Positions 10,696-63,999 are shown, numbered from the whole stretch's first letter. The stretch: 63,999 nt of DNA, filler included, from Stramenopiles sp. TOSAG23-2 (GCA_900128395.1; 6 parts of 6 records of this genome joined end to end with filler, not necessarily neighbours in it); one strand, 5' to 3'. Notes: generated by a model from the sequence alone, not told the origin. Made by a program: numbers and translations.

Positions 10696-10795
10696 NNNNN
10701 NNNNNNNNNNNNNNNNNNNNNNNNNNNNNNNNNNNNNNNTTAATTAATTAANNNNNNNNNNNNNNNNNNNNNNNNNNNNNNNNNNNNNNNNNNNN
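10696..10795. other. Artificial contig linker N44-TTAATTAATTAA-N44
   Basis: Identical 100-nt spacer with stops in all six frames, occurring five times. Confidence 0.99.
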
Positions 10796-21487: not shown

Positions 21488-21587
21488 NNNNNNNNNNNNN
21501 NNNNNNNNNNNNNNNNNNNNNNNNNNNNNNNTTAATTAATTAANNNNNNNNNNNNNNNNNNNNNNNNNNNNNNNNNNNNNNNNNNNN
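21488..21587. other. Artificial contig linker
   Basis: N44-TTAATTAATTAA-N44. Confidence 0.99.
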
Positions 21588-23522: not shown

Positions 23523-26500
23523 ATGTTTGGTGGGAGCAAAGCGAAAAAGTTAGTTGACGAGCTCGATCGTGTATATTTTTTTGGACTGGAAGAGCCACAA
23601 CAGCTAGAGGTGCTTGACAAAATAAATGAATATACCAAGAGTAAAACCAAGTTAAACGCACTAGTTGAATATGGGTTATTATCTAAATTTGCAAATTTAC
23701 TTGCTGGTGTAAAAAATGCAAAAATATTACCAATACCGCAAACTAGATTGATGGAATTGCTGACGATGTTTGCAAAATTAGATGAAATTAAAGTAAAACT
23801 AGGCGTCGGTGCAGAATTATGTCAAATATTGATGCATGAAATCGAAGAATTAGTAGATAAAGTAGATGGTTTAATATCTAGTTCGGAAAGGGCAGCGGTA
23901 AAAAGCAAGCGTACTAAACTTAATTTAATTCGAAATATAGAAAAGAAGAAGGAAACGTTACAACCTCATAAATTTAAAGTGAAATTTCTACTAAACGGTC
24001 CATTAGGTATCAAATTGAAAGCAATTGATCCAAAAGATCCTAAAAAAGGATCAATAATAAAAGAATTGCTAACCAATGGATTGGGCTCAAAGGAGCCATT
24101 AATAAAGGTTGGTGATAGAGTCTTAGGATATAACAATAAAGTTTTTTCGAATCAGACCTATAAAAAAATAGAAAGTACCATATCAAACGCCAAAAGGCCC
24201 ATAATTATTCAATTCCAAGGCAAAAGGTACGGAAAGGAGATTAAACATATTGACGAGACGCTAATAAATAGACATGAAAATGAAAAGTCATCGAGGATCA
24301 AGCAAGATTTAATTAGTAAAGGAAAGGATTTAGATAAACTAGCGAAAAAGAAAGAGAAGAAAAAAGGTGAGCCATATGAATATGAATGTAATTTTCTTAA
24401 AGGTTCACTAGGTATACATTTACGTTCCAGGAGAAAAGATGGTAGAGGTTCAGTTGTAGATATGATTGAAAAAGGCTCGCAAGCTGAAAAAATGGGAGGG
24501 ATACATATAGGACATATTATTACCGGCATAAATGATGAAGATGTAAGAAACGAATATGTAAAAGAGTTAAAGCGTATGTTAGGTATGAAGATTAGAAAAA
24601 TGAAAAAAAAAGATGTTCTTAAAATTCGTTTTCAAGGTATTGATAAGTATTTTCCACCTGGATTTGAATATGATTTTTCCTTTCAAGCGGGTAGTATTGG
24701 TTTAGAATTAGCTGCTCGTGACGCGTTACTAAATAACGGTGCTGTTATAACAAGGATAGTAGATGGTAGTCAAGCGGACAATAGTGGCAAGTGTCGCGAA
24801 GGTCATCAAATTATTGCAGTTGCAGGTACACAATGTATAAATAAAACTTTAAAAGAAATAAAGACATTATTAGTTAAAAATCCTAGACCGGTAGAAATCA
24901 AATTTCAAGTAAGAGATTATGAAAAAGAAGAAAAAGAACGATTAGCGAGGGAATTTGACAAGAAAAAGAGGGAAGATGAGGCTCTGGCAAAGAAACGAGC
25001 TCCAATTAAAACGGTCATATTTGAAAAAGGACCACATGGAATATATCTAGAAAAGATACCTGGGAGAGTAAGAGGTGTTCGTATTTTAAAAACTGCTAGA
25101 AACAGTGCTGGTGCAGAGCATAACGATATATACCAAGGGTTAGAAATTGTCAGCATAAATGGAGAGGATTTTACAAAAAGAATGTTGAAACCAGCAGAAA
25201 AAAAGATGGGGAAAATGTCATATCCATGGACTTTAGTTGTAAAAGACGACTGGTTAGCCCATTTTGAAGCCGGTATGAAAATAGAAGCTTCCAAAGGTGA
25301 ACATAAAATTTTATGGAATGAACAAAATGGGTCATTAGACTTTACTATAAAACCAAATCCAAGCGGTTCGTTTGGTTGTGTAGTTGGTGCAATGAAGGAA
25401 GAAGTTAAGAACGGTTTTGCTGCTATGAAAGGGTTAAAAACTGGATGGCCACTACTACGGATTAATGATGTCGATGTAACACAAATGACGATGAATCAGA
25501 TTGATGAACTTTTTAAAATAACAAAGGTTAAAAGGCCTTTATCAATAACATATATGATTTTAACGGAGGAAGAGTTAAAGGATATAGCAAATAAAGCATC
25601 TAAGAAACGAATAGCTGGTATCGCGACAAAACTTGGGAAAAAAAAGTTAAATTTAAGAGGATTATTATGGAGCATGGCCCCAAAAGCAAGGAAAGAATTA
25701 CCGCTTCCACAAAATGCAGAAATCGCTTTGCAAATGATTCCAGAGTATTGTAAAGTTTTATATGAATTATGCGATGCAGAACCTTGTACGGAAGCAGCCT
25801 GCTCAGAAGAGGCATTTTTTGCTATAGCAAAAGGATTAAATATCTTTTTAAAATGTAAATCACGAGTGGAAAAAGAAGTTCGAGGTGCTTTGTTGAAGTT
25901 ATCCAGATTGTTAATTGATTCCAGTCACGGAATAGAACGCTTCTTAAATACATCCAAATTAATTGATCAGTGGATAAACATATTATATGCAGAGGAACAG
26001 ATATTACCCATTCACGATTTAGCATATGTTCTTCACAAGGTAACAGAGGCTCCTGGCACTACGGACAGAGAAGATTTTAGCTCTTTATATGTCTTTCGAG
26101 TCGGTATCAATAAATTAAATGCTGCTGGTCCAAAAATGTTAAAAGCGAAAGAACCAGAAGGAGAATTAGGTTTTTTTTTAATTGCATCTACTTGTTTGTT
26201 GATCTTCGATGTACCCAGATTTGTGGAACCGTTGATGAATTCCTATATGAAGCCTCCTGGTTTACTAGGTTTATGGACTTTACTTGCGAAAACTCGAAAG
26301 TTGAAAAGTATTGCTGTCATTACGGAGTTAGTTGCAAAAGTTAATCTGAATAATCAACATAAATTATTTGCGCTTCAAAATAAAGCTCCGAGTGCCGCCA
26401 CAATTCCGCCATTTAATGCATTACATGTTCTTGTTATGTCGATGCATCGAACAGGTATGCAAAATAAGCAAACTATTTTTGAATACGAAGTAACATTTGA

Positions 26501-29500
26501 ACCTGGTCCGCTGGGTTTGTTGTTAGACAAGGCGCCCGGTCAACGTGTTGGTGTAATCGTACATGGAGTTCGTGAAGACTCTCAGGCAGATGATCTAGAA
26601 GTTATTGAGGAGGGTGATATTTTAGCTGCGATAGGTGAGACAGATACAAGAAAGTATAACGTTGCAAGGGCGTTGAATCTCATAAAAAGTGCACCCCGGC
26701 CAATCAAATTGAAATTCCATAAACAGAATGTTAGTTCAGAGGATCCAAGTAAAAGATCTGAGTTTGAATGCAAATTCAACTCTGGTCCTATGGGTATAAG
26801 TATGGATTCAATTCCAGGTGCTGAAGTAGGTGCTGTGGTTACTGACGTTATGCCAAAATCTCAAGCAACACTTTTCAAGCGTTTAAATGCGGGCGATGTA
26901 ATCGTCGAAATTGCTGGTAAAAATGTTGAAAATGATCCGATTGGAGTTATAATGAAGAAGTTAACCAGTGCAAGGCGACCTGTTTTTGTTAAGTTTAGGG
27001 ATCCAAATCCGAAAAGTGAAAATGACATACTTGCAGATAGAAATTTAGTAAGTGCAACTAGATTATTAGGTGCTATTCTTCATTACCAAAGTAGTCCTGG
27101 TGCAATGGCAATTCGCTTAGCACAGCGTAGAAAGGCTGTTTCTAAAGGTGACGTTGGTAAAAAGGCTGGAAACAAATTATTTAAACGTTTCAAAGCAAAG
27201 AAAGCAGGAAAGGAAGCAGAGGAGGAAGATAAAGCTGAAGCGGCATTGAAGTTACAAAAGGTATCATTAGATCATCCACTTGATGGTTTGATGATGGTAG
27301 ACGATGCATTAATATTAACTGATTTAATCTTCAAAAGGTTGTTAAAAACACCTCACCCTTCATTTGAGCTTGCATATCATATGTTTGAAGTTGTTGAATT
27401 AATAACGTGTGTTGATCCAGATAAAATTGGGGAGCTAAGTATACCAGGTTTTTTGCATATGGCGACGTTGGAAGAGGAAGATACGACAATGACCTACGCT
27501 GCACATGTGTTAGAAGTTGCAACGGCTTCCATAGCACGACAAGCTGCAAAATATGGCCAATCTTTTTGCGAACTCTTGGTTACAGAAGGTGGTACGGCGA
27601 TGAGTATTCGATCATTCAATCGTATAGAAGAAGCGTACGATCAGGCGGAAAATAAACCTTTAATGACTGGTGATGTATCAGTTTTAAAATGGAATGATGA
27701 GGTTTGTAATTTACTAACTATTCTTGGCAGAGCAGAGTCTGAGCAAATTACTGTATTTTTGAAAGAATCTGGGGAAGAGCTAGTCCCAAACCTCTTTTAC
27801 ATTAGTGATGTCGTGCGTAAGCTAAGTCGTATGGAACAGGAAAATCTTGACGCTTTGATTGAGCAAGGTGACTACGATGGGGACGGTGTAATTGATGATT
27901 TAGACATGTTGAAAGATGTTAATGGGGCAAAAGCTAGAGTCAATTTGTTGCGTAAAATAGAAGGGACGATATACGAGGGTATATATCGATTTTGTCGAAA
28001 TAACAACTCGTGTAGGGATGAACTGACAGATATTTCATTTATTCCAACCACCATAAATGCTTTGCAATCGATGGCTACATTAGAAACTCGGTTTGGGACA
28101 CAAGGTATTGTTGCTTTGTCTCGTCTTCTATTACTACTTACATTCGATGAAGATCGATTGGATCCATTATTATCGGATAAAGGTGCAGTTTCGTCTACTC
28201 GTAGTTTTTGTAGTATATTCACAAGACTGTTAAACTCTTCTGATGATGAGTGGAACGATTATGGCGGTATTTGTATTCCTGCACAAAATATAGCGCAGGT
28301 TGCAGGGCAAATATTGCGTTTAATAGATATTGATGTAGTTTTAGATCATCACGGTGGACAGCCTTTGTGCAGACCACTGGCATTCCGTGTTCAGCAATTG
28401 ATTAGCCGGATTTTGCATGTTAATGATACAAAGTTTCCTAAATTTCGTGCTGATAAAAAGTCATGTATTCTTGCACTTGTTATTATTCTATATGAAATGG
28501 CATCGATAAATAATAACCGTGTAATGCTGGTAGGAGTTGGTGTACCTGAAGCTTTGTGCGAAGTTATGAGTGCGCAAATGTACCCTAAAACAGTTATGGT
28601 AAGTGCAGCGGGAGCAATGTTCAACCTTACCTGTAGTAAAGCTGCTGCATTAAAGATGCAAGAGACTCATTCTGACGGTGTTCTCCAGCGTTTAGTAAGC
28701 TGTATTCAATCGCGAGTTGAGGGTCCACATTGTCAATCGTTATTAATCGCTGCGTTGAGAAACATTGTTACAGGTACACGACTAAGTACGTTAAGAGCAG
28801 CTGCAGCTGTTCGGCATATTATACCAACTTTTCAATTGTATCTAGGGGAAGCTGCACATGTTGGTGGTCTACATAAATTAAAAAGAGCCGAAAGGATATT
28901 CACCAATGAGGATGAAGACTTTCTACCTAGCTTAGTCACGGAAGCATTGCAGTGCATGAAATTTATTACTCATGTTAAAGTTCTTGAATTGACTGGTGTT
29001 CGTGAGCGAGTTTTAACAGCTCGGAACGTGTTTCCAGCTGGTTTAATGTCGGTGGATACATTGGCTGAATTGCATAAACGTAGACGTGCAACACATGATG
29101 AAGATATACGTATCGTCGAAGAAGATGATACTCCAATGGATAAAGTTCATGCAACTATTAAAGAATGGCATACGAAAGCTATTGATAAAGGACTTAATGA
29201 AAATGCTCAAAAAGCATATGTGAAACGAAAATGTAAAGCGCGATCACAAAAGTTTTACGATGTCTTCTTGTCCCAAAATCTTCTCTTTAATAAGTATGAT
29301 CATGTTGATTTTGATGTCGTTGATGCAATGATACATTCGGAAAGGGATGATCCAAGTCGATCTATTAATGTTGTCAAGTGGGTAGATTTTGAATTTTATG
29401 GGGAGAAATTAAAAGAAGACAAGATATTTGATAAACATACAACGGCAATATGGAGGGAAGCGCATGAAGGGTATGACATCGAAACAATGCCAGAAGAAAT

Positions 29501-29963
29501 GCAGAAACGGGTAGGAAGAAGCAAGAAATCGCATTATATAGGTAGCATTTCAACAGCTTCTACATTGGAAATACATAATACGAAAGAAATTGAATATCAA
29601 AAAAATGCAAGATTAGATGACGTAGATGCATTACATGAGTTAAATCGGGAAATTCAAGAAAGGCAGGAACAGGAACGTAAAGTGTTACGAGATAAATTAC
29701 ATGAATTGAAAAATGAGTCTGTTGGTGGTGGGAAAGTTTTAAAGTCGCAGTTGGCAAAATTAGGTTTAACATTGATGAATACAGACTTTTATGGTGAGAG
29801 ATTAAACGCACATTCTCCTGAAAATATTAAAAGATTCAATAATAAATTTAGTACGACGATCAGTCCAAATCATCAAGATATGCTGAACGTTGCAAGTGTC
29901 GATGAAAATAATGCTGATGCATTGTCTGAATTTGATTATTCGTATTATTCAAATACCATTTAA
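23523..29963 (+). CDS. Large multi-PDZ (about 7) protein with ARM/HEAT-like helical regions
   Basis: GLGF-like loops GPLGI, GSLGI, GSIGL, GPHGI, GSLDF, GPLGL, GPMGI, mostly followed by G[DH]xIxxING-like and RP motifs; ARM-like AAGAMFNL. Confidence 0.88.
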   Translation: MFGGSKAKKLVDELDRVYFFGLEEPQQLEVLDKINEYTKSKTKLNALVEYGLLSKFANLLAGVKNAKILPIPQTRLMELLTMFAKLDEIKVKLGVGAELCQILMHEIEELVDKVDGLISSSERAAVKSKRTKLNLIRNIEKKKETLQPHKFKVKFLLNGPLGIKLKAIDPKDPKKGSIIKELLTNGLGSKEPLIKVGDRVLGYNNKVFSNQTYKKIESTISNAKRPIIIQFQGKRYGKEIKHIDETLINRHENEKSSRIKQDLISKGKDLDKLAKKKEKKKGEPYEYECNFLKGSLGIHLRSRRKDGRGSVVDMIEKGSQAEKMGGIHIGHIITGINDEDVRNEYVKELKRMLGMKIRKMKKKDVLKIRFQGIDKYFPPGFEYDFSFQAGSIGLELAARDALLNNGAVITRIVDGSQADNSGKCREGHQIIAVAGTQCINKTLKEIKTLLVKNPRPVEIKFQVRDYEKEEKERLAREFDKKKREDEALAKKRAPIKTVIFEKGPHGIYLEKIPGRVRGVRILKTARNSAGAEHNDIYQGLEIVSINGEDFTKRMLKPAEKKMGKMSYPWTLVVKDDWLAHFEAGMKIEASKGEHKILWNEQNGSLDFTIKPNPSGSFGCVVGAMKEEVKNGFAAMKGLKTGWPLLRINDVDVTQMTMNQIDELFKITKVKRPLSITYMILTEEELKDIANKASKKRIAGIATKLGKKKLNLRGLLWSMAPKARKELPLPQNAEIALQMIPEYCKVLYELCDAEPCTEAACSEEAFFAIAKGLNIFLKCKSRVEKEVRGALLKLSRLLIDSSHGIERFLNTSKLIDQWINILYAEEQILPIHDLAYVLHKVTEAPGTTDREDFSSLYVFRVGINKLNAAGPKMLKAKEPEGELGFFLIASTCLLIFDVPRFVEPLMNSYMKPPGLLGLWTLLAKTRKLKSIAVITELVAKVNLNNQHKLFALQNKAPSAATIPPFNALHVLVMSMHRTGMQNKQTIFEYEVTFEPGPLGLLLDKAPGQRVGVIVHGVREDSQADDLEVIEEGDILAAIGETDTRKYNVARALNLIKSAPRPIKLKFHKQNVSSEDPSKRSEFECKFNSGPMGISMDSIPGAEVGAVVTDVMPKSQATLFKRLNAGDVIVEIAGKNVENDPIGVIMKKLTSARRPVFVKFRDPNPKSENDILADRNLVSATRLLGAILHYQSSPGAMAIRLAQRRKAVSKGDVGKKAGNKLFKRFKAKKAGKEAEEEDKAEAALKLQKVSLDHPLDGLMMVDDALILTDLIFKRLLKTPHPSFELAYHMFEVVELITCVDPDKIGELSIPGFLHMATLEEEDTTMTYAAHVLEVATASIARQAAKYGQSFCELLVTEGGTAMSIRSFNRIEEAYDQAENKPLMTGDVSVLKWNDEVCNLLTILGRAESEQITVFLKESGEELVPNLFYISDVVRKLSRMEQENLDALIEQGDYDGDGVIDDLDMLKDVNGAKARVNLLRKIEGTIYEGIYRFCRNNNSCRDELTDISFIPTTINALQSMATLETRFGTQGIVALSRLLLLLTFDEDRLDPLLSDKGAVSSTRSFCSIFTRLLNSSDDEWNDYGGICIPAQNIAQVAGQILRLIDIDVVLDHHGGQPLCRPLAFRVQQLISRILHVNDTKFPKFRADKKSCILALVIILYEMASINNNRVMLVGVGVPEALCEVMSAQMYPKTVMVSAAGAMFNLTCSKAAALKMQETHSDGVLQRLVSCIQSRVEGPHCQSLLIAALRNIVTGTRLSTLRAAAAVRHIIPTFQLYLGEAAHVGGLHKLKRAERIFTNEDEDFLPSLVTEALQCMKFITHVKVLELTGVRERVLTARNVFPAGLMSVDTLAELHKRRRATHDEDIRIVEEDDTPMDKVHATIKEWHTKAIDKGLNENAQKAYVKRKCKARSQKFYDVFLSQNLLFNKYDHVDFDVVDAMIHSERDDPSRSINVVKWVDFEFYGEKLKEDKIFDKHTTAIWREAHEGYDIETMPEEMQKRVGRSKKSHYIGSISTASTLEIHNTKEIEYQKNARLDDVDALHELNREIQERQEQERKVLRDKLHELKNESVGGGKVLKSQLAKLGLTLMNTDFYGERLNAHSPENIKRFNNKFSTTISPNHQDMLNVASVDENNADALSEFDYSYYSNTI

Positions 29964-32273: not shown

Positions 32274-32373
32274 NNNNNNNNNNNNNNNNNNNNNNNNNNN
32301 NNNNNNNNNNNNNNNNNTTAATTAATTAANNNNNNNNNNNNNNNNNNNNNNNNNNNNNNNNNNNNNNNNNNNN
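32274..32373. other. Artificial contig linker
   Basis: N44-TTAATTAATTAA-N44. Confidence 0.99.
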
Positions 32374-43053: not shown

Positions 43054-43153
43054 NNNNNNNNNNNNNNNNNNNNNNNNNNNNNNNNNNNNNNNNNNNNTTA
43101 ATTAATTAANNNNNNNNNNNNNNNNNNNNNNNNNNNNNNNNNNNNNNNNNNNN
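43054..43153. other. Artificial contig linker
   Basis: N44-TTAATTAATTAA-N44. Confidence 0.99.
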
Positions 43154-47743: not shown

Positions 47744-48488
47744 AATGATTTGTGTGTTGATGTTGGATGAGATATATTTAACTTGATGGGAAAATCAATA
47801 TTATATATATATATATTATATATTAGTATAATTACGCAATATAATGATATACTGATGTTGATAATTATATAATCTACAACTATATGTATATGATACAACT
47901 GATATATAAACAGAAATGAATTCACTGTTTTAAATATAATTTTCACGATAAATAAAACCGAACGTATTTATATATTATATACACGAATGATACAGTACAA
48001 CAATATCTCTCTCTCTCTTCCACTCTTCTATTTGTGTCATACATATATGTATGACGACTCTTTCCAATTGAATGGACTATTTCCAAATTGTCCCCTGCAC
48101 AATAAAATGGCAAATTAAAAAAAATAAAATTATGATTGTGTAAGACCTTGTTGTAATGATAAACACTTTTATATTATGCAATTATTACGGGAGAGTTATG
48201 GTTACGTTTATATATATAAATGACAGAATATTATTCCCCTATACCTGGCATAATTTTGCGAAGTGGCGTCCCTCACTTTCAATCAAATTTTGTCTATTTC
48301 ACTTGATATTTAATAAATATTTCCGATTATTAGTGAACTATTTTAATGCCTTTAGAATCATTTTAATATAGAAACAAACACAAAATATTACCTAACGTTT
48401 TCCTAATATAGAATCAAGATTTCAGCGATTAAAAAGGAGCGATTCTTCAGTGTGAGAGGTGACAAGTGACAAAATGGAAATACCATTT

Positions 48489-53804: not shown

Positions 53805-53904
53805 NNNNNNNNNNNNNNNNNNNNNNNNNNNNNNNNNNNNNNNNNNNNTTAATTAATTAANNNNNNNNNNNNNNNNNNNNNNNNNNNNNNNNNNNNNNNN
53901 NNNN
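53805..53904. other. Artificial contig linker
   Basis: N44-TTAATTAATTAA-N44. Confidence 0.99.
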
Positions 53905-54047
53905 TATTCTTTTAGTATAAATTAACCCTATTTATCCAAATATCGTTAAATTTTTATTTTTTTTTTCTAACGATTGTTTTCGTCAATATTACTACAGAAT
54001 TTCCTATAATAATCCCCTTGTATTTTTAATAATTGTCGAATTTTGTT

Positions 54048-54344
54048 CGTGCCGAAATTGATTTCGGCACGTCCGAAAAAAATACACTCATACACTCCGT
54101 TCAAAGCGGACATTTAACATACAAAATGATATTAACAAAGTCCACTTTGTTAATGGAATCGAATAGAGCAAATTCTACAGAAAATCCCAGAGGAAAAAAA
54201 ATAAATACAAAATGTTTTACGAACGAGTACATTCATGGCACGCAAAATTATTTTTTGTGCCGAAATCAATTTCGGTCAAAATACATAAAAAATAAAACTA
54301 ATTATAATTAAAATTTTGTGGCACACGATTTTTTTCGTGTGCCA
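54048..54344. repeat. Cluster of three GC-richer palindromic hairpins
   Basis: CGTGCCGAAAT-TG-ATTTCGGCACG (54048-54071), CCGAAAT-CA-ATTTCGG (54260-54275), TGGCACACGA-T6-TCGTGTGCCA (54319-54344). Confidence 0.85.
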
Positions 54345-54575
54345 TGCAGATTGTCCTATATGTTATACATTGCTTTATACTCGACACTACTAGGGCATAG
54401 TTACCTGCTAAAAGTGATATCCCCACTATGAGATGCATATGCATATCATACGAAAACGTATTTTTACTACGAATATATTGTGTACTTTATGAATATATGG
54501 ATTTTAATAATATACATACCACACACACACACACATACAATTAGTTTTTTCTTCTTCTACGAACCCGCCTCGTAT

Positions 54576-55691
54576 TTATTTACCAAAAACGCACGTTTTA
54601 GATCTTGTATCAAGGCAACTACACATTCCAGGTCGACTCCATCCCATCTTTTCCATCCGTAATCTTTGTGAATGTGCTTTAAAATTAACGGCGCGAGTTG
54701 CCCATTGTTGTTTAATCATTTCAGGCAATGGAATTGATACATAACTCATTTTTGGCCCAGGTAATTTTACTGTAGGGCTATTCATATCTAAGTCGTTCAA
54801 CCATACGCATCCATGTTCCAAGCCATCCACTTTACAAGAATCTTCTCGGCGTAATTTACCACATTCAAAATGAACATTCACATGAAATTTTGATGCGTCT
54901 TTAACTTTGATATGCCCATGTTTATACAAAATACATTGAACTCTTAAATCTTTACGTATTTTATCATAAAGTTCTTTGTCCCATTCAGCATATACATTCT
55001 TTTCCGATTCCAATTCTAATTTGCAATGTTTTGGCACTGTTTCTTTGCCTTTTGAATCTATCAAAGCGCTTCTTTGTTTTACTGCATGTCGTGGCGAATT
55101 TATACAAAATATATATTTAACAATAGATTTCATTTGTAAAATTTTTGGTTGATGTTTCCTTAGAAATGTAATAGCAGTATTGATCTTATGTTCTTTGGAT
55201 ATTGGACACTTTGTTGCTATTTTTTTTTGTGTCGAAGACGTATGAGTTGAAGCTTTTTTAGCCGTCTTTCCTATTGTTGTTGTTATTGTTCTCGGATAAC
55301 TTTTCAAAGCACATTTTACTTGTGGGTGTAATAACATTTGTTTATAAGTTTGTCTCTCCATATCATAATATTTATCAGTTTTTTTTAACACACATGCTTT
55401 TGGTTGTGGATTGTGACTTGCTTCCAAGAAAGTTTTATGTTTCGCTCTTTTTTGTGGCGATAATAAGCAAAACATATGATCCAGGAAGAGTTGTTTCTTC
55501 AAACAGATCCTGTTAAAACTACTTAAATATGACAATGCGTTCCCGACATTATCTTCTTTACCTTTACAACGTTTCTTTATATTACTACATAAATTTTTTT
55601 CTTGATATTTAACATTACTTGCATTAACAGTTGAAAAATATAATGCAATTATGTACGAAATTGTTATTATCAATGTGATTTTATGATTCAT
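54576..55691 (-). CDS. Secreted basic Cys-rich protein with two internal ~85-aa repeats
   Basis: Signal peptide (..STVNA-S); two units with conserved FC..SP, P..C.L, Y, V.C.L. Confidence 0.8.
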   Translation of the reverse strand: MNHKITLIITISYIIALYFSTVNASNVKYQEKNLCSNIKKRCKGKEDNVGNALSYLSSFNRICLKKQLFLDHMFCLLSPQKRAKHKTFLEASHNPQPKACVLKKTDKYYDMERQTYKQMLLHPQVKCALKSYPRTITTTIGKTAKKASTHTSSTQKKIATKCPISKEHKINTAITFLRKHQPKILQMKSIVKYIFCINSPRHAVKQRSALIDSKGKETVPKHCKLELESEKNVYAEWDKELYDKIRKDLRVQCILYKHGHIKVKDASKFHVNVHFECGKLRREDSCKVDGLEHGCVWLNDLDMNSPTVKLPGPKMSYVSIPLPEMIKQQWATRAVNFKAHSQRLRMEKMGWSRPGMCSCLDTRSKTCVFGK

Positions 55692-56390
55692 CTTTCCTTT
55701 TTTGTATTGACGATTGATATTGTTTTAATATACGACGACAATATAAAATGTGAATGTGAATGTGAATGTATATGTATTCCACGTGTTTGTTCTTATTCCC
55801 TATGATGTTATTTGTGTATTTCTTTCAACATGTATTGCACATCTCCCCTCACTTTTTTGATGATTTAGAATTGTGTCATTTTTAAGTTCATCTGCGTCAC
55901 TTCATTTGATTTAGGAGGATCATAGCATTGAGTTCAGAGATCCTGTGTCTGGTATGACATCGGTAAAATCATGTGTGTAAATAGTATAACTATACCGTAT
56001 ACTTAATCGAAGTGTCTGTACCACCACCGGAGTCAAAAAGTGTTTGTTTTTACCACCTTTATTTTTGCTCTTATTTGTTCAAATAATCCAACGAATCTAG
56101 TCGTATTTACATGCTAATCTCTGCGAATGAAGAAGTTGGATAAGTTGGATAGATCAAAAACCCACATAGAAATAAATAAACATAGATAGATATATAAAAT
56201 GAATATTGCAACAATATCAATTGCACATAAAGTGTAACTATCTAAAACTAATACTAAGATAAAGATTGTTAGTAACCATTATTGCTAAAGATCCTGTACA
56301 CCATCCATATTTATACAGGAATACTAATATATTTTTGTTCTTACATTTTTTTTACCAATTGAACCCACTGTATTAAAAATCCAGTATTAA

Positions 56391-58820
56391 ATGGCACAAA
56401 AATATCAAGTGAACTTGCCCCTTGGTGGGACAAAAGAGGAGAAAGAATATGAAGGTGGATATTTAACAGTAAGAGAGGCTGCTTTTATTACACGTTCAGT
56501 GCGACTTGAAATAGAAAAAGCGGGAAAATTACCAGATGCACCTTGCGATGACCTAGTCGAAGCTGGTATATTATTAGCAGATATATCTGGTTTTACTGCC
56601 CTCGGAGAAAAACTAAGAGAAATGCACGGAGATGCAAAAGGCGCTGAAGAATTCGCGTTACAAATGTCAGAGGCTATCAGTGCATTAGTAAATATCGTTC
56701 ATAAATATGAAGGTGAGGTTGTTAAAATAGCTGGTGATTGTCTAATTTGTATATTTGTACAAGAAGCGCAAGATGAAGACGACGAGGAAGAGTTTTTTCA
56801 ACGTGCAAAATTATGTGCTCGTGACTGTCTAACGGCAATCAAGGAAACAAACGAGAATCTTGATTTACATGGTGGTCTTGACCGTGGTAATATCCAACGA
56901 ATGCATTTAAAAGAATTAAAAGGATCTTCTCCAAGATCAAATAGTGCGCGAAGTAGATTAAAAGAGCAACAAGCAACAATGATGAATAAAAGCGAATTGG
57001 AAGCATCAAGGCAGCGTTGGTTTTTAATTGCAGGGAGACCTATTAAAGTTGCTGGTTCGTTACTAGATAAAGCGCCTGCTGGAAGTATCAACGTGTATGG
57101 AGGACAAACAATTACCCGGGATACTAGTGAACAAGATTTAACCACCACAGACGTTAATATGGAAACTGAAATAAACCGTAGGAAAAGCAGTGTTGATGTT
57201 GTTGCTGCTGAACTCTCTCTATGCCCAGAAATAGCGGATTCTTACTTACCACCAATTGTTCGTGAGAAAAAGAGAAATGGCGTCGATTTAGGTAAATTTG
57301 TTAGTGAACATAGGCGCGTTGTTGTCGCATTTGTTGCTATACCGGGGTTGGCAAAAGCAGCTAGCAAGCCAAAAGGTGTGAATGTATCACACTTGAACGA
57401 TGTATACTCTGCATTGAAGTCTGTCTTAGCAAAATTCGAAGGGCAAATGAGAGATTTTCTCTTTGAAGACAAAGGGTGTACGATGATTTGTTGTTGGGGT
57501 ATTACTCAAATAACAGAGTTTGATGCTTTAAAAGCTGTTTTATTTACCCTTGATGCAATTTCTGCTTGTGAAGCTTTGTCAGAGCCATGCAAAATTGGTA
57601 TTAGCATGGGACAATGCTTTACTGGAATTTGTGGCCATAAAACAAGATGCGATTTTGTTGTAATGGGTGCTGAAATTAATATGGCTGCTCGTCTAATGGG
57701 TAAAGCTCCAACTGGAACCGCATTGGCATCCGAACGTGTGTACAATGCAACAAGCAATTATATTGGTTTCGACATGACGGAACCAGTTGAAGTAAAAGGT
57801 AAAGATGGTAATTTTCGTGCTTTGAGACCATTTGGTAAAAAAGCAGGTGCGGTACGTCATAAAGCCCAAGAAGGCTTGAAATCTGCGGTATTTGTTGGTC
57901 GTGCTAAAGAAATGAAAGTGTTGAAAGAAAATTTAAGCAAAATGCGTGAAGATGGCAAAGGCAGTGCCGTTATTTTGGAAGGTTTAGCTGGCATGGGTAA
58001 AAGTGCTATTGTTTGGCAGCTTCAAAGAGATGCACTTGATGTTGGTGTACGATTTTTGATGGGCACTGGTAGTGCAATTGAAAAACAAACTCCATTTTAT
58101 GCATTTGGTCAAATTTTATGTGCAGCTGCACAATTATCTTCCTCGCCTTCATATGGTGAGGTATTAGCATTGAAGCATAACTTTGATTTGGAAGATGAAG
58201 ATATTGATGCGATGGGTATTATTCTACCGTCAATGGCAAAGACAAAAGAACAAAAGAATTCTCATCTTGAAGCGCGTGCTGCGCAAGTGTGTTTGAAAAT
58301 CTTTTCTTCAATGAAAAATGCTATTTTTGTTTTTGAAGATGCACATTGGATCGATTCGCAGTCATGGGTTATGCTACAAATGGTATTACCAAAGTTAGCA
58401 TCACAAAGCATGGTTATGATTGTAACACGGCCACCAAATATGGAATCACAAGAGCGTGGAGGTGGTACCGAAGGTTTTGACGCTAGTGAAGAAAAAATGG
58501 CAGAGGAATTTTTAGAAGATGATGATCGTATCAAATTTACCAGAATTCTATCCGCACTAAAAGAACAGGAGGATATCAAACTTTTATCGTTATCTGGTAT
58601 GTCAAAGGACGCCATGAAGGAGTTAATTGCAAAAACATTGGATGTGCCGTTGAACAACATCACAGATGAATTTGTTGATACAATTGACCAAAAAGCGGGT
58701 GGCGTTCCAATGTATTTAACCTCAATCACGGCTTGGTTATCCGAAAAAGGAATGGTGACGAAAGATGAAAATGACAATATATCTTTTAAAGCTCTACAAG
58801 TAGACCAAAGCAAAAGTTAG
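56391..58820 (+). CDS. ADCY10/soluble adenylate cyclase-like protein: two class III cyclase domains plus STAND P-loop NTPase, C-terminally incomplete
   Basis: ADISGFT, KIAGDC (metal Asp), FEDKG, GAEINMAARLM (N/R), FVGRAKE, Walker A GLAGMGKS, Walker B FVFEDAHW, GGVP motif. Confidence 0.93.
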   Translation: MAQKYQVNLPLGGTKEEKEYEGGYLTVREAAFITRSVRLEIEKAGKLPDAPCDDLVEAGILLADISGFTALGEKLREMHGDAKGAEEFALQMSEAISALVNIVHKYEGEVVKIAGDCLICIFVQEAQDEDDEEEFFQRAKLCARDCLTAIKETNENLDLHGGLDRGNIQRMHLKELKGSSPRSNSARSRLKEQQATMMNKSELEASRQRWFLIAGRPIKVAGSLLDKAPAGSINVYGGQTITRDTSEQDLTTTDVNMETEINRRKSSVDVVAAELSLCPEIADSYLPPIVREKKRNGVDLGKFVSEHRRVVVAFVAIPGLAKAASKPKGVNVSHLNDVYSALKSVLAKFEGQMRDFLFEDKGCTMICCWGITQITEFDALKAVLFTLDAISACEALSEPCKIGISMGQCFTGICGHKTRCDFVVMGAEINMAARLMGKAPTGTALASERVYNATSNYIGFDMTEPVEVKGKDGNFRALRPFGKKAGAVRHKAQEGLKSAVFVGRAKEMKVLKENLSKMREDGKGSAVILEGLAGMGKSAIVWQLQRDALDVGVRFLMGTGSAIEKQTPFYAFGQILCAAAQLSSSPSYGEVLALKHNFDLEDEDIDAMGIILPSMAKTKEQKNSHLEARAAQVCLKIFSSMKNAIFVFEDAHWIDSQSWVMLQMVLPKLASQSMVMIVTRPPNMESQERGGGTEGFDASEEKMAEEFLEDDDRIKFTRILSALKEQEDIKLLSLSGMSKDAMKELIAKTLDVPLNNITDEFVDTIDQKAGGVPMYLTSITAWLSEKGMVTKDENDNISFKALQVDQSKS

Positions 58821-58834
58821 AAGAGGCAAAAAAA

Positions 58835-59512
58835 ATGGATACTACAGCAATTACTGTTGATTCTATGTTGACAAAATGGAAGAAAGGCGTTGTAGGAAAA
58901 GACCTTGGTCTAGGTGCTACCATGAAAATGAATTTTGATGGCGCTGGAGTTATCTTTATCGATGGTGCTTCAACACCAAACGCAGTCACGGGCGAGGATA
59001 AAGATGCAGATTGTACAATAATAATTTCGTTGGCAAACTTTATTTTACTTGCACAAAAAAAGTTAAATGCTATGGAAGCCATGGGAGATGGTCGTTTAAA
59101 AATTGAAGGTAATATGGGACTTGCTATGAAATTGGCTCCTGTATTAAAAATGTTAAACGATGTGCCAGAAGAAGAAAATGTATCAAATCAAGGATATACC
59201 AAGTTTGTTGCAAAAGCAAAAGAAAAATTACAAGGAAAAGATCTTGGATTTCCCAAAAAATTGAAAATGGAATTTGAGGGTGTTGGTGTGGTAATATTTG
59301 ATGGCACTGCTGGTGCGATGAATGTTACAACGGACGATGCTGCTGTCGATGCAACCGTCACAATGACAATGGAAACATTTGGCAAATTAGTTACGAAAGA
59401 ATTAGATTTCATGGCTGGAATGGGACAAGGATTGATAAAAGTTGATGGTGATATGTCAGTTTTAATGGGTATGGGTGCGATAATGAAAAAGATGGGAGAG
59501 GGAGAGGATTAA
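58835..59512 (+). CDS. Tandem double SCP2 sterol/lipid-binding domain protein; frame open from 58790, possibly the C-terminus of the upstream cyclase
   Basis: ADCTIII..KLNAMEAMGDGRLKIEGNMGLAMKL and VDATVTM..ELDFMAGMGQGLIKVDGDMSVLM match the SCP2 consensus. Confidence 0.9.
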   Translation: MDTTAITVDSMLTKWKKGVVGKDLGLGATMKMNFDGAGVIFIDGASTPNAVTGEDKDADCTIIISLANFILLAQKKLNAMEAMGDGRLKIEGNMGLAMKLAPVLKMLNDVPEEENVSNQGYTKFVAKAKEKLQGKDLGFPKKLKMEFEGVGVVIFDGTAGAMNVTTDDAAVDATVTMTMETFGKLVTKELDFMAGMGQGLIKVDGDMSVLMGMGAIMKKMGEGED

Positions 59513-59588
59513 AAGTATAATATTATAAAATATTCTTGTATATTGTATAGCATTATATTTAAAGAAAACTTCTTTCCAACACACGTTT

Positions 59589-60215
59589 TTAATACTTCAC
59601 CATCTCGAAAAATTTCACAATAATTATCACATTCGCTACGTAATACAAGACTTTTGCAACAATTCGACATATCAAAAGTAATTTTCCCATCGTACCAGAA
59701 AATCTACCTTGTATAATTGCAAAAAATGCTTCTAAAAATAAACAAACAGTTGCAAATATAAAACCTCGTTGTTTCATATATTCATCCGGTTCCGTTCGTT
59801 CTAAATCAACACTACCATGTAATCTTGCAATTAAAAACAATAATAATAACATTGGTATCGTAGAAGCAATAGGTGCAAGACGATCAAAGATATTATTATT
59901 TTTTCGGTTTAATTTTTCTTTTTCTTCTTTCATTGCTAATGAATCCTCTTCATCATCATCTGATGTTGGACCATTAATACTAAGCCGTTCATCTGGTACA
60001 TCTTTAAAACTAGTTGAATCTTTTTGTACATCATTATCTTCATCAAAAAAACAAAATTTATATATCACACCACCCATATCAATTGAATAAAATAATACAA
60101 TCAATGCTACTGAACATTGCATTGCCGTGCTCATAGGAGGTGCATCCCCTGGACTATACATTTGTCGAAAAGGATATCCTTTGTTTTTTGGAAAATCTGG
60201 TAAATCATCTGCCAT
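59589..60215 (-). CDS. Uncharacterised four-TM membrane protein
   Basis: Likely ATG at 60215 (MADDLP); four hydrophobic segments. Confidence 0.75.
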   Translation of the reverse strand: MADDLPDFPKNKGYPFRQMYSPGDAPPMSTAMQCSVALIVLFYSIDMGGVIYKFCFFDEDNDVQKDSTSFKDVPDERLSINGPTSDDDEEDSLAMKEEKEKLNRKNNNIFDRLAPIASTIPMLLLLFLIARLHGSVDLERTEPDEYMKQRGFIFATVCLFLEAFFAIIQGRFSGTMGKLLLICRIVAKVLYYVANVIIIVKFFEMVKY

Positions 60216-60740
60216 TGTATTATTAATCAAAGTATAAACATACAAAAAAGGTATTATAAAAGTAACGGTTTGTATTTCTCAGCTTATATATATATATATA
60301 TCCATTAATATATCACAATGTATAGATTATACACAAAAAAAAGATATATATTGTCCATGATATTCATTAAAATAATTGGGAGCAAAAGATATGGCACAAA
60401 TGTGCGAAATGTGCTCAACAAACCAAAAAAAACAAACACAAAAACGGATTTCGTAAAGTACATTTAGCATATAAATAGTATTGTAACTATGATTATTTGT
60501 ATAGTAATAGTTCGATTATATTCCTATTAATCGATATAGCATGGATATAGTATTAATGTGGCGGCAACTCATTTGAAATTTTGTTGTTGATTGAAAATCT
60601 CTTCTTTTCCGTCTCAACAACACAAACAAATTCAAATATATATAGATATAGTTATATGTTTCATGTTATATTTACTGCAAGCTAAAAGAAACAACAAATA
60701 TATATAAATATATCAATATATAAGAACATAAGAAAACACA

Positions 60741-61325
60741 ATGTCATCGTTTTGTTGGGGTACCAATGGCCGCGAGTTGCTGAAAGAATTGCAACGTAGT
60801 GAATTTTTGCCACCGTATAATACGGAGGGAGTTAGGAAAACATTAGCGGAAATGTCTGAAATTATCGACGATATGTTAAAAACAACACAAACGGAAGGGT
60901 TTGATAATAACGATCCAGAAATGTATTCCAGTGTCATAGTTAGTCATAGTGGTTACAATCGTAACAAACGTTGCTTGTTGGCATACATGCGTCATCGTAT
61001 GAAGAAAATTGAAGAGATGCGTATGGAAGTTGGACGTATTATTCCACAAAATATTAAATTACAACTTAGTGTCGAGGAACAAAATTATTTTAGAAACTTT
61101 AGTAATTTAACAGAAAAATATATGAAAGATATAGGATTTGATTTAACAACCAACATAAAACCACCGAAGGAACCATTTGTTGAAGTACGCGTATTGGAAT
61201 CGTGTGGTGAAATATTTACAGAAGATGGAACCAGTGTAAATTTAGAAGAGAATACTACACATTATTTACGTAGGAGTGATGTGGAACAATTAGTCAGGCA
61301 AGGATATCTTGAAGAATGTATGTAA
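60741..61325 (+). CDS. GINS1: GINS complex subunit 1 (Psf1)
   Basis: LPPYN, RNKRCLLAY..R, DLT..KPPK..VEVRVLESCGEI..HYLRRSDVEQLVRQGYL. Confidence 0.96.
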   Translation: MSSFCWGTNGRELLKELQRSEFLPPYNTEGVRKTLAEMSEIIDDMLKTTQTEGFDNNDPEMYSSVIVSHSGYNRNKRCLLAYMRHRMKKIEEMRMEVGRIIPQNIKLQLSVEEQNYFRNFSNLTEKYMKDIGFDLTTNIKPPKEPFVEVRVLESCGEIFTEDGTSVNLEENTTHYLRRSDVEQLVRQGYLEECM

Positions 61326-61604
61326 AAATAGGATAATAGTGGTATTATTCATATTGCGCCGGGGGGAAAGTGTGTGTGTGGTGTGTACCGTGTTGTTAAA
61401 AATACGATTTCGTGATTTCGTAATATATTATATATGCAGCAGTGTCAATAAATAATTTCTTCTGTATGTACATATGATGTGTTACAAAAGATACCATATG
61501 TAATATATAATACAACATCTCCTCTTCTAAAATACCTGAAATGGATGATTTGTGTGATTATTATTTTTTACATTTTTATCTCTTTTAAAATATTTGAATA
61601 CTTT

Positions 61605-63299
61605 TCATTTCTTTCTATGCGTACCACTTCCACCACCAATCATTCTTAATTTACCTTCTAATTCATTAATTTCATCTTCTTTCTTTTTATATGCAATGGA
61701 TGATTCAACATGTAAGCCTTTAATACTACGTTGTCGTAAAACTACATCTTTATGATTAGATGTTCGCATTGATAATGTTTCAATCATACTTTGTAATTTT
61801 CGTATTTCACCATCACTACTACCACTATATTTTGCTTCTGTCAATGTATTTGTTAATCGTTGTAATTTTGATTCCATATTTTTTAATTTTGCTTCATTTT
61901 GTAAAATTAATTTATTAGCTGCTATGTTTGAGCTTTTCCCGGTAGAACCTTTTTCACCACGATCAGCCATTGCTTTTAATTCTCGTTTACATTGTTTTAA
62001 CTGCATTTCAATAATAGCACGTTCTTTATTTACATCAATTGTTTTATTTACAACACCACTATTTGCAACACCAGTCATACGTTGTCCAAATCGTAACGTA
62101 CAATCTGATTCATCTTCATGTTCAGCTTCTGGGGAAACATTTACAATTACAGAGGTAACACATTTACCACCAAGGGATGATCTTAAAAGCATTGTTAAAG
62201 TTGAATCACGAAATGGAACATGTCCATTTTTTCGAACCAATCCATTAATACAACGCCCTAAGGTTGTTAATGAATTATTAATTTGTGCAGCTTCTAATTT
62301 TTTTTGACCTGATACACCACTTTTTGATATTCGTTCCGAACCCGCTAAATCAACAAATAATAATGATACTTTTTTTCCATTACTCATCCAAGATACACGT
62401 ACAAGGCAATGCGATCTACTTGAACGTTCATTTAATAAATGTCCTTTTGCCGCACGTGTCTGTTCAATCGTTCGTGCTAATCTTGCAACATCTTTTGCAC
62501 TTTTTAATGCAATTAATTTTTCACCAACAGTTTTAAATTCATCATGTCTTGAAGAATTGTCTCCATTATTATTATTATTATTACTACTACGGCGACGTGA
62601 GGAAGAAGAAGGTTTACGTCTTGCATCTTCAATTTTTTTTTGTCGTGCTAATTTTTTTAATTTTTTTTGTTCTTCAATATATTTAAAACAATGACGGCAT
62701 GTGCAACCAGATGGATGATTACCACTCATAGCAGAACGCATGGAAATATCCGACCCTCCTTCATCCATCACAGCACCACGTGGTACAACATTGAAATTTG
62801 CTTTTTTACTACTACCAATTCGTAAAACTTGACGTGAATTGTTTAAATCATATGCAACATTTTGATACACTTCAATAGCAGATGCATGCAATACGGTTGT
62901 ATTGGAATTCAAAATATGCAAAACAAAACGTGGAAAAATACCCCATTCGATTGGAATACCACCATATGCGCCATCAACACTAGATTCCGTTAAACATCCA
63001 GTTGGTCCAAACATTGTATATGTTTTTCCACTTCCAGTTTGGCCATATGCAATTAAGGTACAACTATATCCTTGTTCAGTTTGTCTTAAAAGATGTTGTG
63101 CCAATGTATTAAAAGCACCAACTTGATCACTACCAGTTACAACAGCAGCTGGATATGTAAATGTTTTATCTCGCACGGATATATTCCCTTTGCTATCACA
63201 GATAGTTGCTAAATTATTTGTTCTTTCTTTGAATAATGGTGGCCGTAAACGTACAGATACACGTATCGTCGAAGAAGATCGACTAGACCTGCTTTTCAT
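61605..63299 (-). CDS. Kinesin motor protein with short coiled-coil tail
   Basis: IRVSVRLRP, AYGQTGSGKTYTM, NERSSRSH, VDLAGSER, INNSL, HVPFRDSTLT; first ATG at 63299. Confidence 0.95.
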   Translation of the reverse strand: MKSRSSRSSSTIRVSVRLRPPLFKERTNNLATICDSKGNISVRDKTFTYPAAVVTGSDQVGAFNTLAQHLLRQTEQGYSCTLIAYGQTGSGKTYTMFGPTGCLTESSVDGAYGGIPIEWGIFPRFVLHILNSNTTVLHASAIEVYQNVAYDLNNSRQVLRIGSSKKANFNVVPRGAVMDEGGSDISMRSAMSGNHPSGCTCRHCFKYIEEQKKLKKLARQKKIEDARRKPSSSSRRRSSNNNNNNGDNSSRHDEFKTVGEKLIALKSAKDVARLARTIEQTRAAKGHLLNERSSRSHCLVRVSWMSNGKKVSLLFVDLAGSERISKSGVSGQKKLEAAQINNSLTTLGRCINGLVRKNGHVPFRDSTLTMLLRSSLGGKCVTSVIVNVSPEAEHEDESDCTLRFGQRMTGVANSGVVNKTIDVNKERAIIEMQLKQCKRELKAMADRGEKGSTGKSSNIAANKLILQNEAKLKNMESKLQRLTNTLTEAKYSGSSDGEIRKLQSMIETLSMRTSNHKDVVLRQRSIKGLHVESSIAYKKKEDEINELEGKLRMIGGGSGTHRKK

Positions 63300-63620
63300 T
63301 ATTATTATTATTAGTAGTAGTATTGGACTGAGCAAGAAAAATGAGTAACAATTAATTTATATGATAAAAAAAAATCACATAAAATAAATAATACCAAGCT
63401 CTACAAATATATTCAAAAATGAAACACAAATGTTGGTAAATATAGTCGTCTATTGTATTGAACGACAATATTCATACAGTTGGTCATCAAATTTCTATAC
63501 AGTATATATCTATATGTATGGAGTATATAATTGTGTTTGTCACTTCTTTTTAATATAATAATTTAACGCTCGAGAAGCCGAAGAAATCCGAATAATGGAG
63601 GATTCTTCTGGTAATAATTA

Positions 63621-63782
63621 TCCCTTTCAAGTACAAAATTTAGTGGTCATTTGATAGGAATCATGTTTCATTTTTTGATTTTGTAGGTTGAATTAATGAA
63701 TTTAGGAATTTGATGAGTAAGTATTTGTTTAATATTCTAATTTCCCCTTTCAAGTACAAATTATGTGCCATTTGATAGAATA
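63621..63782. repeat. Diverged copies of the 48489-48633 repeat
   Basis: CCTTTCAAGTACAAA..GT[GC]..CATTTGATAG twice. Confidence 0.75.
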
Positions 63783-63999
63783 AGATCAAATTGAATCTTT
63801 ATCATTTTTTTTAAATTTATCGATCCCGTGTACTACTATACTGTACTTTATACGTGCATTCCCAGCATTCCTTTCCTAAGGCATTCTAATTCCTCCTTAC
63901 CAGGTATCCTCCTATAATAAATAAATCAAAAAAAGAATTCTTTTTGTATCCTCTAAGCGTGAAATAGACTTATATAAGTCTATTAAGGTGATAAAATGA

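Follow-up and report, generated by a model that had tools for sequence, protein, structure and literature searches.

In the window, which is the whole stretch of 63,999 nucleotides analysed from Stramenopiles sp. TOSAG23-2 (GCA_900128395.1), two open reading frames (ORFs) follow each other on the plus strand at 56391..59512, in the last piece of the window (53905-63999) and clear of any linker. ORF A encodes a cyclase joined to a STAND NTPase, ORF B encodes two sterol carrier protein 2 (SCP2) domains, and the relationship between the two is the subject of this report. The window is AT-rich eukaryotic DNA with a G+C content of 27-39% per 2-kb step, and its sequence was found in marine DNA and RNA runs. 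All six genes of the ~10-kb piece are uninterrupted single ORFs, and introns were not seen in them. The spacer between the stop codon of ORF A and the ATG of ORF B is 14 nt (58821-58834). The frame of ORF B is -1 relative to that of ORF A, is open from 58790 with zero stops 3' of 58789, and reads SSTSRPKQKLEEAKK before the Met. An earlier note on this DNA had described the 14-nt gap on one strand and the -1 frame open from 58790, and had placed the end of ORF A about 40 codons past a GGVP motif. All of this was borne out, with ORF A ending 36 codons after GGVP (aa 770-773), and Pfam confirmed the domains that the note had called, namely two cyclase domains, a STAND NTPase and a doubled SCP2. 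The features are given in Table 1.

Table 1. Features of the cyclase and SCP2 locus and linkers of the window, with positions counted from the first letter of the window.
Feature	Position	Strand	Description
ORF A	56391..58820	+	809 aa; truncated ADCY10-like cyclase and STAND NTPase; stop TAG 58818-58820
Cyclase domain C1 core	56532..56765	+	aa 48-125; DISGFT 56580-56597; IAGDC 56727-56741
Cyclase domain C2	57270..57806	+	aa 294-472; EDKGC 57465-57479; NMAAR 57678-57692; best Pfam stretch 306-472; aligned to ADCY10 276-436
STAND NTPase (P-loop and helical domain)	57891..58709	+	Walker A GMGKS 57990-58004; Walker B FEDAHW 58332-58349; GxP GGVP 58698-58709
Probable deletion junction	58788..58790	+	left ...NISFK in frame 0; right SSTSRPKQKL... 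in frame -1; from tblastn and tail alignment
Wrong-frame end of ORF A	58791..58820	+	nine codons (ALQVDQSKS), then TAG; tail-motif DNA out of frame
Tail-motif remnant	58790..58834	+	SSTSRPKQKLEEAKK in the ORF B frame; aligns with [SG][AG]ASIPKQKLEDAKK in 8/8 homologue tails
ORF B	58835..59512	+	225 aa; double SCP2
SCP2 domain a	58856..59158	+	aa 8-108; extra copy relative to P0181 and P0189; sequence and structure matches
SCP2 domain b	59180..59497	+	aa 116-221; counterpart of the single C-terminal SCP2 of relatives
Linkers	10696-10795, 21488-21587, 32274-32373, 43054-43153, 53805-53904		N44-TTAATTAATTAA-N44

ORF A matches the Pfam families Guanylate_cyc in two stretches (E 1.4e-16), AAA_16 (E 2.1e-15, aa 501-675), and NB-ARC (E 4.8e-6, aa 613-728). 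Its nearest solved relative in a search of PDB sequences is human ADCY10, the soluble adenylyl cyclase (sAC), with an E-value of 2.9e-24, and the ADCY10 chains match in two stretches (query 48-125 and 294-455). The motifs DISGFT, IAGDC, EDKGC, and NMAAR of ORF A align with the human sAC columns DISGFT, FAGDA, FDKGC, and NLAAR, and those of C1 are aligned to human sAC D47 and K95/D99. We take the residues concerned to be two metal-binding Asp in C1 and a Lys, an Asn, and an Arg in C2. The Lys matching sAC K95 is kept in ORF A, which proves nothing on stimulation by bicarbonate or calcium. ADCY10 resembles the family of ORF A in its tandem class III cyclase domains, its STAND P-loop NTPase, its long helical C-terminal region, and the aligned columns of metal-binding Asp, Lys, and Asn/Arg. 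ORF A itself has the tandem class III domains on one chain, appears to have the catalytic-residue columns of an ADCY10-type sAC, and carries the STAND P-loop NTPase behind C2; the winged-helix region and the helical arm with tetratricopeptide repeat (TPR)-like character are absent from the window. Since these two regions are missing, the window copy is a truncated derivative of an ADCY10-type sAC and not a complete member.

ORF B matches SCP2 (PF02036) in two stretches with an E-value of 1.9e-23 and 83.2 bits, compared with a cut-off of 21.3. Its AlphaFold (AF2) model consists of two alpha/beta domains with a mean predicted local distance difference test (pLDDT) of 87.3. Foldseek with this model gave 1c44 (E 4e-7), 1ikt (template modelling (TM) score 0.71 on the target), and 1pz4 (TM 0.73), with sterol carrier protein 2 and the SCP2-like domain of MFE-2 ranking first among the PDB structures matched. 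Domain a is 34% identical to domain b and 37-45% identical to the single SCP2 of relatives. A metagenome locus scan with ORF B gave four loci, all of them distant single-SCP2 genes with 38-41% identity. The Met of ORF B stands in a strong context for initiation (AAAAAAAATGG), and it is also the start of P0031, a protein 99% identical to ORF B that comes from a third assembly (ENA contig of 64,968 nt). The two proteins differ at the C-terminal end (...MKRWERERIKSIIL in P0031 and ...MKKMGEGED at 59483-59512 in the window) because P0031 has one A fewer in the run 59486-59490. In this respect X2, a sequencing run that carries the same organism label and is from a sample other than that of the probable source run, sides with the window, since its contig over 59094-59558 has 0 differences.

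A homologue search with residues 480-809 of ORF A returned 30 proteins at E <= 1e-3 among 3900 candidates. The 11 closest are 63-65% identical to the query, are mostly 970-1245 aa long, and have PF00211 and PF13191, and PF02036 is on record in none of the 30. The closest relatives all extend beyond the end of ORF A (...NILFKG-DIHDIKFPNSIMDTV...). An exhaustive HMMER search with the ORF B frame gave 630 matches at E <= 1e-3, among which P0031 alone exceeds 55% identity. Two short proteins, P0032 (on an 822-nt contig) and P0036, run from a tail motif directly into SCP2 in one ORF. The 90% cluster of P0032 includes P0181, a protein of 1749 aa in which Pfam finds Guanylate_cyc, AAA_16, and a C-terminal SCP2 at residues 1666-1744 (E 1.6e-9). 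A search with the last 370 residues of P0181 led to four proteins, which are P0189 (1739 aa on a 6674-nt contig, with precomputed PF00211, PF13191, and PF02036) and P0190-P0192 (1592-1639 aa, without SCP2). Single polypeptides with Guanylate_cyc, AAA_16, and SCP2, for which the earlier note had suggested a search, therefore exist as P0181 and P0189. A word-based search had found no longer protein with the SCP2x2 part, and this result was a false negative, as P0181 and P0189 surfaced via cluster membership and the search with the tail of P0181.

The relationship of ORF A to these proteins is close and colinear. Residues 1-800 of ORF A align with residues 1-821 of P0181 at 63% identity over 825 columns, and over these first 800 residues the identity to the full-length relatives P0181, P0189, and P0190-P0192 is 63-66%. 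The family proteins are 1590-1750 aa long. Beyond the part that resembles ORF A they continue for ~810 residues, among which are a coiled coil and a helical arm of TPR-like character. Their chains close with a conserved tail motif, SIPKQKLEDAKK. The genes of the relatives nearly fill their own contigs, e.g. 1739 codons on 6674 nt.

The SCP2 end is present in two of the five full-length relatives, and these two are in different clades of the family tree. The tree has 16 rows and is unrooted; the N-terminally incomplete P0010 and P0011, and P0012-P0030, which are fragments or distant matches, were left out. In one clade the chains end with ...AKK(K/T)DA(E/A)IN(K/S), so that P0190-P0192 and P0011 stop 4 residues past ...AKK(K/T)DA. 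Since this clade without SCP2 stops exactly where the members with SCP2 continue, it appears from the sequences that SCP2 has been gained or lost in the family at a fixed boundary. Loss would be more likely than gain because the window copy falls outside all three clades, as far as an unrooted tree can indicate.

Two side observations concern other members of the family. P0036 (129 aa, on a 47,998-nt ENA contig) has a Met just ahead of the tail motif (MVPSIPRKKIQDAKA...), followed by SCP2, and may be a second split locus or a gene-calling effect. Some contigs of X2 agree with ORF A over short conserved stretches and depart from it at loose ends (58491 and 58549). Inspected by eye, the sequence beyond the match is like that of other family members (AALKENSNIT..., GADAALKSKE...) in the clade of P0007, which suggests that the organism has additional paralogues of this cyclase.

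The nature of the ~810 residues was examined with an AF2 model of P0011, which is based on a shallow alignment of 14 sequences and has a mean pLDDT of 67.2. Residues ~440-990 are predicted as an all-helical solenoid, with pLDDT mostly 75-96, and long helices would follow to the end; the model is unreliable for the NTPase and the next ~125 residues, which have pLDDT <50. With Foldseek the best matches of the model are TPR-type solenoids (APC/C subunits, Tom70/71, the Ski complex, and TTC7B) at E-values of 9e-5 to 1e-3 and TM scores of 0.2-0.4. A profile of the five full-length relatives matched only cyclase domains among PDB sequences, and the arm has no solved relative by sequence. The first ~125 residues of this region, with an invariant KFTHQII, may form the STAND winged-helix domain because this is the usual order of STAND domains. 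In the intact relatives SCP2 thus follows ~810 residues made up of the presumed winged-helix region, the TPR-like arm, and the coiled coil, and the proposal of the earlier note that SCP2 takes the sensor position does not hold.

At the window locus the homology to the long relatives breaks off and resumes at one place. On the left it extends to ...NISFK (58776-58790, frame 0), up to residue 821 of P0181, and on the right it begins at SSTS (58790 on, frame -1), at ~P0181 residue 1630 and onward. The ORF B frame from KQKLEEAKK aligns with P0181 from residue 1636 on. Between these points ~810 codons (~2.4 kb) are missing, and the flanking frames are one base apart. When P0011 and P0007 were compared with the window by tblastn, each gave one match ending at 58787, and no other place in the window matched the remainder of the two proteins. 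In the ORF B frame, SRPKQKLEEAKK at 58799-58834 is the counterpart of the family tail motif. In the tail alignment, SSTSRPKQKLEEAKKMD lies opposite [SG][AG]ASIPKQKLEDAKK[KT]DA in all eight homologues, and the terminus of P0011, ...ASIPKQKLEDAKKTDAEINK, resembles the ORF B frame directly ahead of the ATG (SRPKQKLEEAKKMD). The Met of ORF B occupies the position at which the relatives have K, T, or N in AKK-K/T-DA. The 15 codons before this ATG share homology with the tail of the long relatives, and the adjacency of ORF A and ORF B is therefore not due to chance.

Therefore, as ORF A is colinear with P0181, as the tail motif precedes ORF B, and as the fused proteins P0181 and P0189 exist, it is probable that ORF A and ORF B go back to a single ancestral gene, of which they represent the two ends, and that this gene suffered a real internal deletion. 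The earlier note had suspected one broken gene and had named a deletion among the causes, and this agrees with the colinear relatives, the missing ~2.4 kb, and the tail motif. The simple indel that it had also named does not suffice, for ~2.4 kb of coding sequence is absent and the join is out of frame as well. In comparison with the subfamily of P0181 and P0189, the window locus has the colinear cyclase and NTPase, the tail motif directly before the SCP2 part, and an SCP2 end homologous to theirs in domain b. It lacks one uninterrupted reading frame, because of the shift at 58788-58790 and the stop at 58818-58820. P0181 and P0189 are intact single chains with the ~810-aa middle and one SCP2, whereas the window copy is without the middle, frameshifted, and has two SCP2 domains, domain a being placed between the tail motif and the counterpart of the single SCP2 of the relatives.

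That two unrelated genes merely lie close together in a compact genome is, in comparison, extremely improbable. Gene callers do treat SCP2x2 as a protein of its own, as in P0031, and the spacers of the piece can be short, with 76 nt between the stop codon of ORF B and that of a convergent 218-aa ORF. However, the other 5' spacers on this ~10-kb piece are ~500-700 nt, compared with 14 nt here, and the ORF B frame contains, immediately before its ATG, the tail motif of the cyclase family. Domain b is also 56% identical to the SCP2 end of P0181, and both P0181 and P0189 hold all the domains on one chain.

Another explanation is that the organism has a full-length gene and that the junction arose as a chimera during assembly or whole-genome amplification. 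The best DNA matches of the window are two small runs of 2015 from one study (21 and 17 million letters), the window is stitched from pieces with linkers of the form N44-TTAATTAATTAA-N44, and the join is out of frame, as is often the case in artefacts. On the other hand, a 188-nt contig of X2, from the other sample, spans 58681-58868 and reproduces the junction (0 differences, 0 gaps), and random chimeras are not expected twice. P0031 on its 64,968-nt contig starts at the same Met, the junction is away from the linkers, and none of the 20 loose contig ends shown, out of 95, is at 58788-58791. An artefact of this kind is therefore improbable. The earlier note had proposed that DNA and RNA reads be mapped over 58740-58840; the DNA part of this check gave the unchanged X2 contig, whereas no RNA contig bridges the junction.

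It is also conceivable that the locus produces one short fused cyclase-NTPase-SCP2x2 protein, by a -1 frameshift at UCU UUU AAA G, by a tiny intron, or by an extra base in the A run at 58788-58790 that is present in the true sequence or in other alleles. In such a protein, SCP2 would indeed come immediately behind the NTPase. With one more base in the A3 run, the sequence would read ...NISFK-SSTSRPKQKLEEAKKMDTT... without a change of frame, and the ORF B frame is stop-free after 58789. One-base differences in A runs do occur between assemblies, as between P0031 and the window at 59486-59490. The lineage-specific duplication of SCP2 and the intact ORFs would also suit a short form that has existed for a long time. 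At the junction, however, X2 is identical to the window base for base, and P0031 is called from the same internal Met and not as a long fusion. By our own reading of the sequence, U UUU AAA is not a slippery site of the type X XXY YYZ. No stimulator of frameshifting was found in the 121 nt around the site, as they fold no better than shuffled sequences (z = +0.61; 140 of 200 shuffles as good). The tiny intron, which the earlier note had also offered, was rejected, since the phase-correct GT..AG segments found by eye are just 11, 17, and 26 nt long, no intron was seen in the six genes of the piece, and an RNA contig of run X8 (58815-58965) keeps the genomic AG at 58815-58816 that a 58800-58816 splice would lose. 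Overall, a short fusion protein is rather improbable.

If the deletion is real, the two pieces may be retained because they are useful, or they may be a dead remnant, i.e. two non-functional ORFs in decay after a recent deletion and frameshift. Both ORFs are fully open over 809 and 225 codons, and every catalytic and Walker motif that was checked is retained. Of the 424 columns that are invariant in 14 homologues (P0190 was left out since its N-terminus is missing), ORF A retains 373, comprising 222 of 243 in the cyclase parts and 151 of 181 in the NTPase. Differences to related contigs were also considered, of which 39 are listed and 17 further ones lie beyond, and some of these contigs have <95% identity and are maybe paralogues. 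Among the listed differences, 21 of the 25 in ORF A are synonymous, leaving 4 that are non-synonymous, and synonymous changes make up 7 of the 14 in ORF B. Five of the seven non-synonymous changes in ORF B are at aa 119-133, around the inter-domain linker. The ATG in its strong context is exactly at the start of the SCP2 part and is shared with P0031. These observations stand against a dead remnant.

Expression points in the same direction. Contigs of poly(A) metatranscriptomes match both ORFs with at least 99% identity. In run X8 they cover 57160-57402 (0 differences) and 58815-58965 (1 difference), and in run X14 they cover 58198-58426 (0 differences) and 59233-59487 (1 difference). On the flanks (56000-56267 and 59618-60000) the depth is 0 in both RNA runs, whereas both DNA runs have cover there. 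The RNA cover is patchy, with 20 of 30 bins in X8 and 10 of 30 in X14, so that a gap at 58546-58813 is not evidence for two transcripts. Two contigs of X8 start close to the ATGs, one at 56369, which is 22 nt before that of ORF A (173 nt, 9 differences), and one at 58815, which is 20 nt before that of ORF B (151 nt, 1 difference). These starts are a weak hint of short 5' leaders and of a separate start for ORF B, as contigs cannot show the ends of RNA. A shared start motif upstream of the ATGs of ORF A, ORF B, and PSF1 was sought by eye, and nothing convincing was seen.

Several points weigh against the view that a real deletion left two working pieces. The NTPase has lost more of the invariant columns than the cyclase parts (30/181 vs 21/243, Fisher p = 0.016), the changes in ORF B are divided evenly between 7 synonymous and 7 non-synonymous, and the branch of ORF A is long (0.99, compared with a median of 0.09). 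The NTPase losses and the 7:7 ratio are compatible with beginning decay as well as with a changed role. The synonymous differences come from relatives with 90-97% identity in runs X3 and X8, which may or may not share the deletion. X2 and the probable source run belong to one study, and the contigs of X2 are assemblies of low depth (4.7) and not raw reads. RNA contigs across 58546-58813 are absent from X8 and X14, and RNA libraries can hold DNA. The contig of P0031 would be expected to carry a 99% twin of ORF A, but none is among the matches of the homologue search, where the best identity is 65%, and the exact ORF A sequence is not in the collection; in the assembly of P0031 the twin may be fragmented or cut at the contig end. 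The winged-helix assignment, in addition, falls in the part of the P0011 model with pLDDT <50.

A dead remnant would account for the out-of-frame join, for the 14-nt spacing without a normal promoter, and for the relative losses in the NTPase, the substitution ratio of ORF B, and the branch length of ORF A. Other family copies under the same organism label, as at the X2 loose ends 58491 and 58549, could cover the function. Nevertheless, with the open frames, the synonymous excess in ORF A, the retained motifs, and poly(A) RNA contigs on both ORFs and not on the flanks, this explanation is possible but the less likely one, and we lean slightly towards pieces that are still expressed and useful over a fresh wreck.

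A possible course of events at the locus, assuming one ancestral gene and a real deletion, can be described as follows. The ancestral gene would have encoded, in order, a tandem class III cyclase, a P-loop NTPase with its helical domain, a presumed winged-helix region, a TPR-like solenoid of ~550 aa, a coiled coil, and the tail motif, and it may have ended with a C-terminal SCP2 lipid-binding domain, which is present in part of the family. A genomic deletion of ~810 codons (~2.4 kb) would then have brought the tail motif, shifted by one base, next to the end of the NTPase helical domain. In the present sequence ORF A terminates after 9 wrong-frame codons, and the SCP2 part, doubled in this lineage, forms a separate ORF whose ATG lies within the former tail motif. 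If this ATG is used for translation, ORF B may be a free double SCP2 lipid carrier. STAND proteins without a sensor arm often lose control. ORF A would likewise be a still active cyclase, with an output gated neither by the arm nor by the SCP2 end.

This expectation for ORF A, active without C-terminal control, is based on the analogy with sACt, a natural form of sAC without the C-terminal regulatory part. According to the available text of one report, sACt has a specific activity ~3 to 3.5-fold higher than that of full-length sAC, sACfl (PMC12802110). The two truncations differ in origin and extent, as sACt is a product of exon skipping whose chain ends directly behind C2, whereas the window copy would result from a genomic deletion after the NTPase helical domain. 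ADCY10 also differs in that it has no SCP2. A predicted heme-binding domain is described for it instead (PMC12802110).

In the intact relatives, the most likely contribution of SCP2 is lipid binding or membrane docking at the C-terminus, where the sensor end of the STAND switch lies. A more specific possibility, which we regard as rather doubtful, is that SCP2 is the ligand input of the switch, with lipid occupancy or membrane contact gating the synthesis of cAMP, and that the window locus is a natural uncoupling of the two. If this were true, the intact proteins would be lipid-sensing soluble cyclases of uncultured marine protists, and the locus would provide a constitutive cyclase and a free double lipid carrier or, with one base recoded, a minimal cyclase-NTPase-SCP2x2 protein in which SCP2 replaces the arm. 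Lipid regulation of the cyclase is something that we purely infer, and the lipid-regulated cyclase that the earlier note had proposed for this locus is not upheld.

SCP2 is known from several other fusions. SCPx (thiolase-SCP2), MFE-2/HSD17B4, and fusions with major facilitator superfamily (MFS) proteins, acyl-CoA dehydrogenase, and enoyl-CoA hydratase (ECH) have a C-terminal SCP2 on a larger protein, as does the family described here. The C-terminus is a common position of SCP2 in multidomain proteins, as stated in the available part of an earlier survey (PMC2529247). Among the matches of ORF B, such fusions are P0085 (thiolase), P0135 (acyl-CoA dehydrogenase), P0150 (ECH), and P0082 and P0134 (MFS), and others have repeated SCP2. 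These known partners are lipid-metabolising enzymes or transporters, unlike the signalling cyclase and STAND partner here, and a cyclase was found in none of the 14 HMMER matches scanned with Pfam. Bacterial STAND proteins of the type cyclase-AAA_16-TPR have the same domain order; they form the nearest ESM-Atlas clusters to P0181 (scores 0.95-0.96) and are distant matches of ORF A with 21-29% identity. They have a single cyclase domain, not the tandem C1-C2 of ADCY10. SCP2 was seen in none of the best 10 rows of the ESM-Atlas clusters nearest to P0181.

Judged by sequence, the family is a marine-protist branch of ADCY10-like STAND cyclases, and the window locus is probably a disrupted copy. 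In the literature search, which did not extend to subscription journals, SCP2 was not linked to a soluble or STAND cyclase in any paper, and nothing relevant on sAC in stramenopiles or diatoms was among the papers listed. The architecture of cyclase, AAA_16, and SCP2 thus exists in database proteins, and no paper on it was found. A 2025 study of full-length sAC did not find a sACfl-specific regulator, within the text available (PMC12802110), and the regulation of the long C-terminal part of sAC is still open even in mammals. The SCP2-ending protist branch, documented by two full-length proteins and the window remnant, is a testable candidate for such an input. As a natural deletion variant, with the arm gone and SCP2 separated, the window copy offers a ready-made construct for comparison. 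For genome annotation, the two gene calls would represent one disrupted locus and not a novel compact fusion gene.

The remaining observations concern the rest of the window. The convergent neighbour of ORF B is at 59589-60245 on the minus strand, has hydrophobic stretches, and is without a Pfam family match. The five 100-nt linkers, N44 + TTAATTAATTAA + N44, are ~10.8 kb apart and divide the window into six pieces. They cut long ORFs, as the HECT ORF begins right at 21487 and a PHD/ARID ORF meets N at 47794 and 43106. The HECT ORF, at 14447-21487 on the minus strand, encodes 2347 aa with Laminin_G_3, UBA, SPRY, and HECT domains, its start being cut by the linker, and its giant neighbour at 23523-29960 on the plus strand encodes 2146 aa with four PDZ domains.

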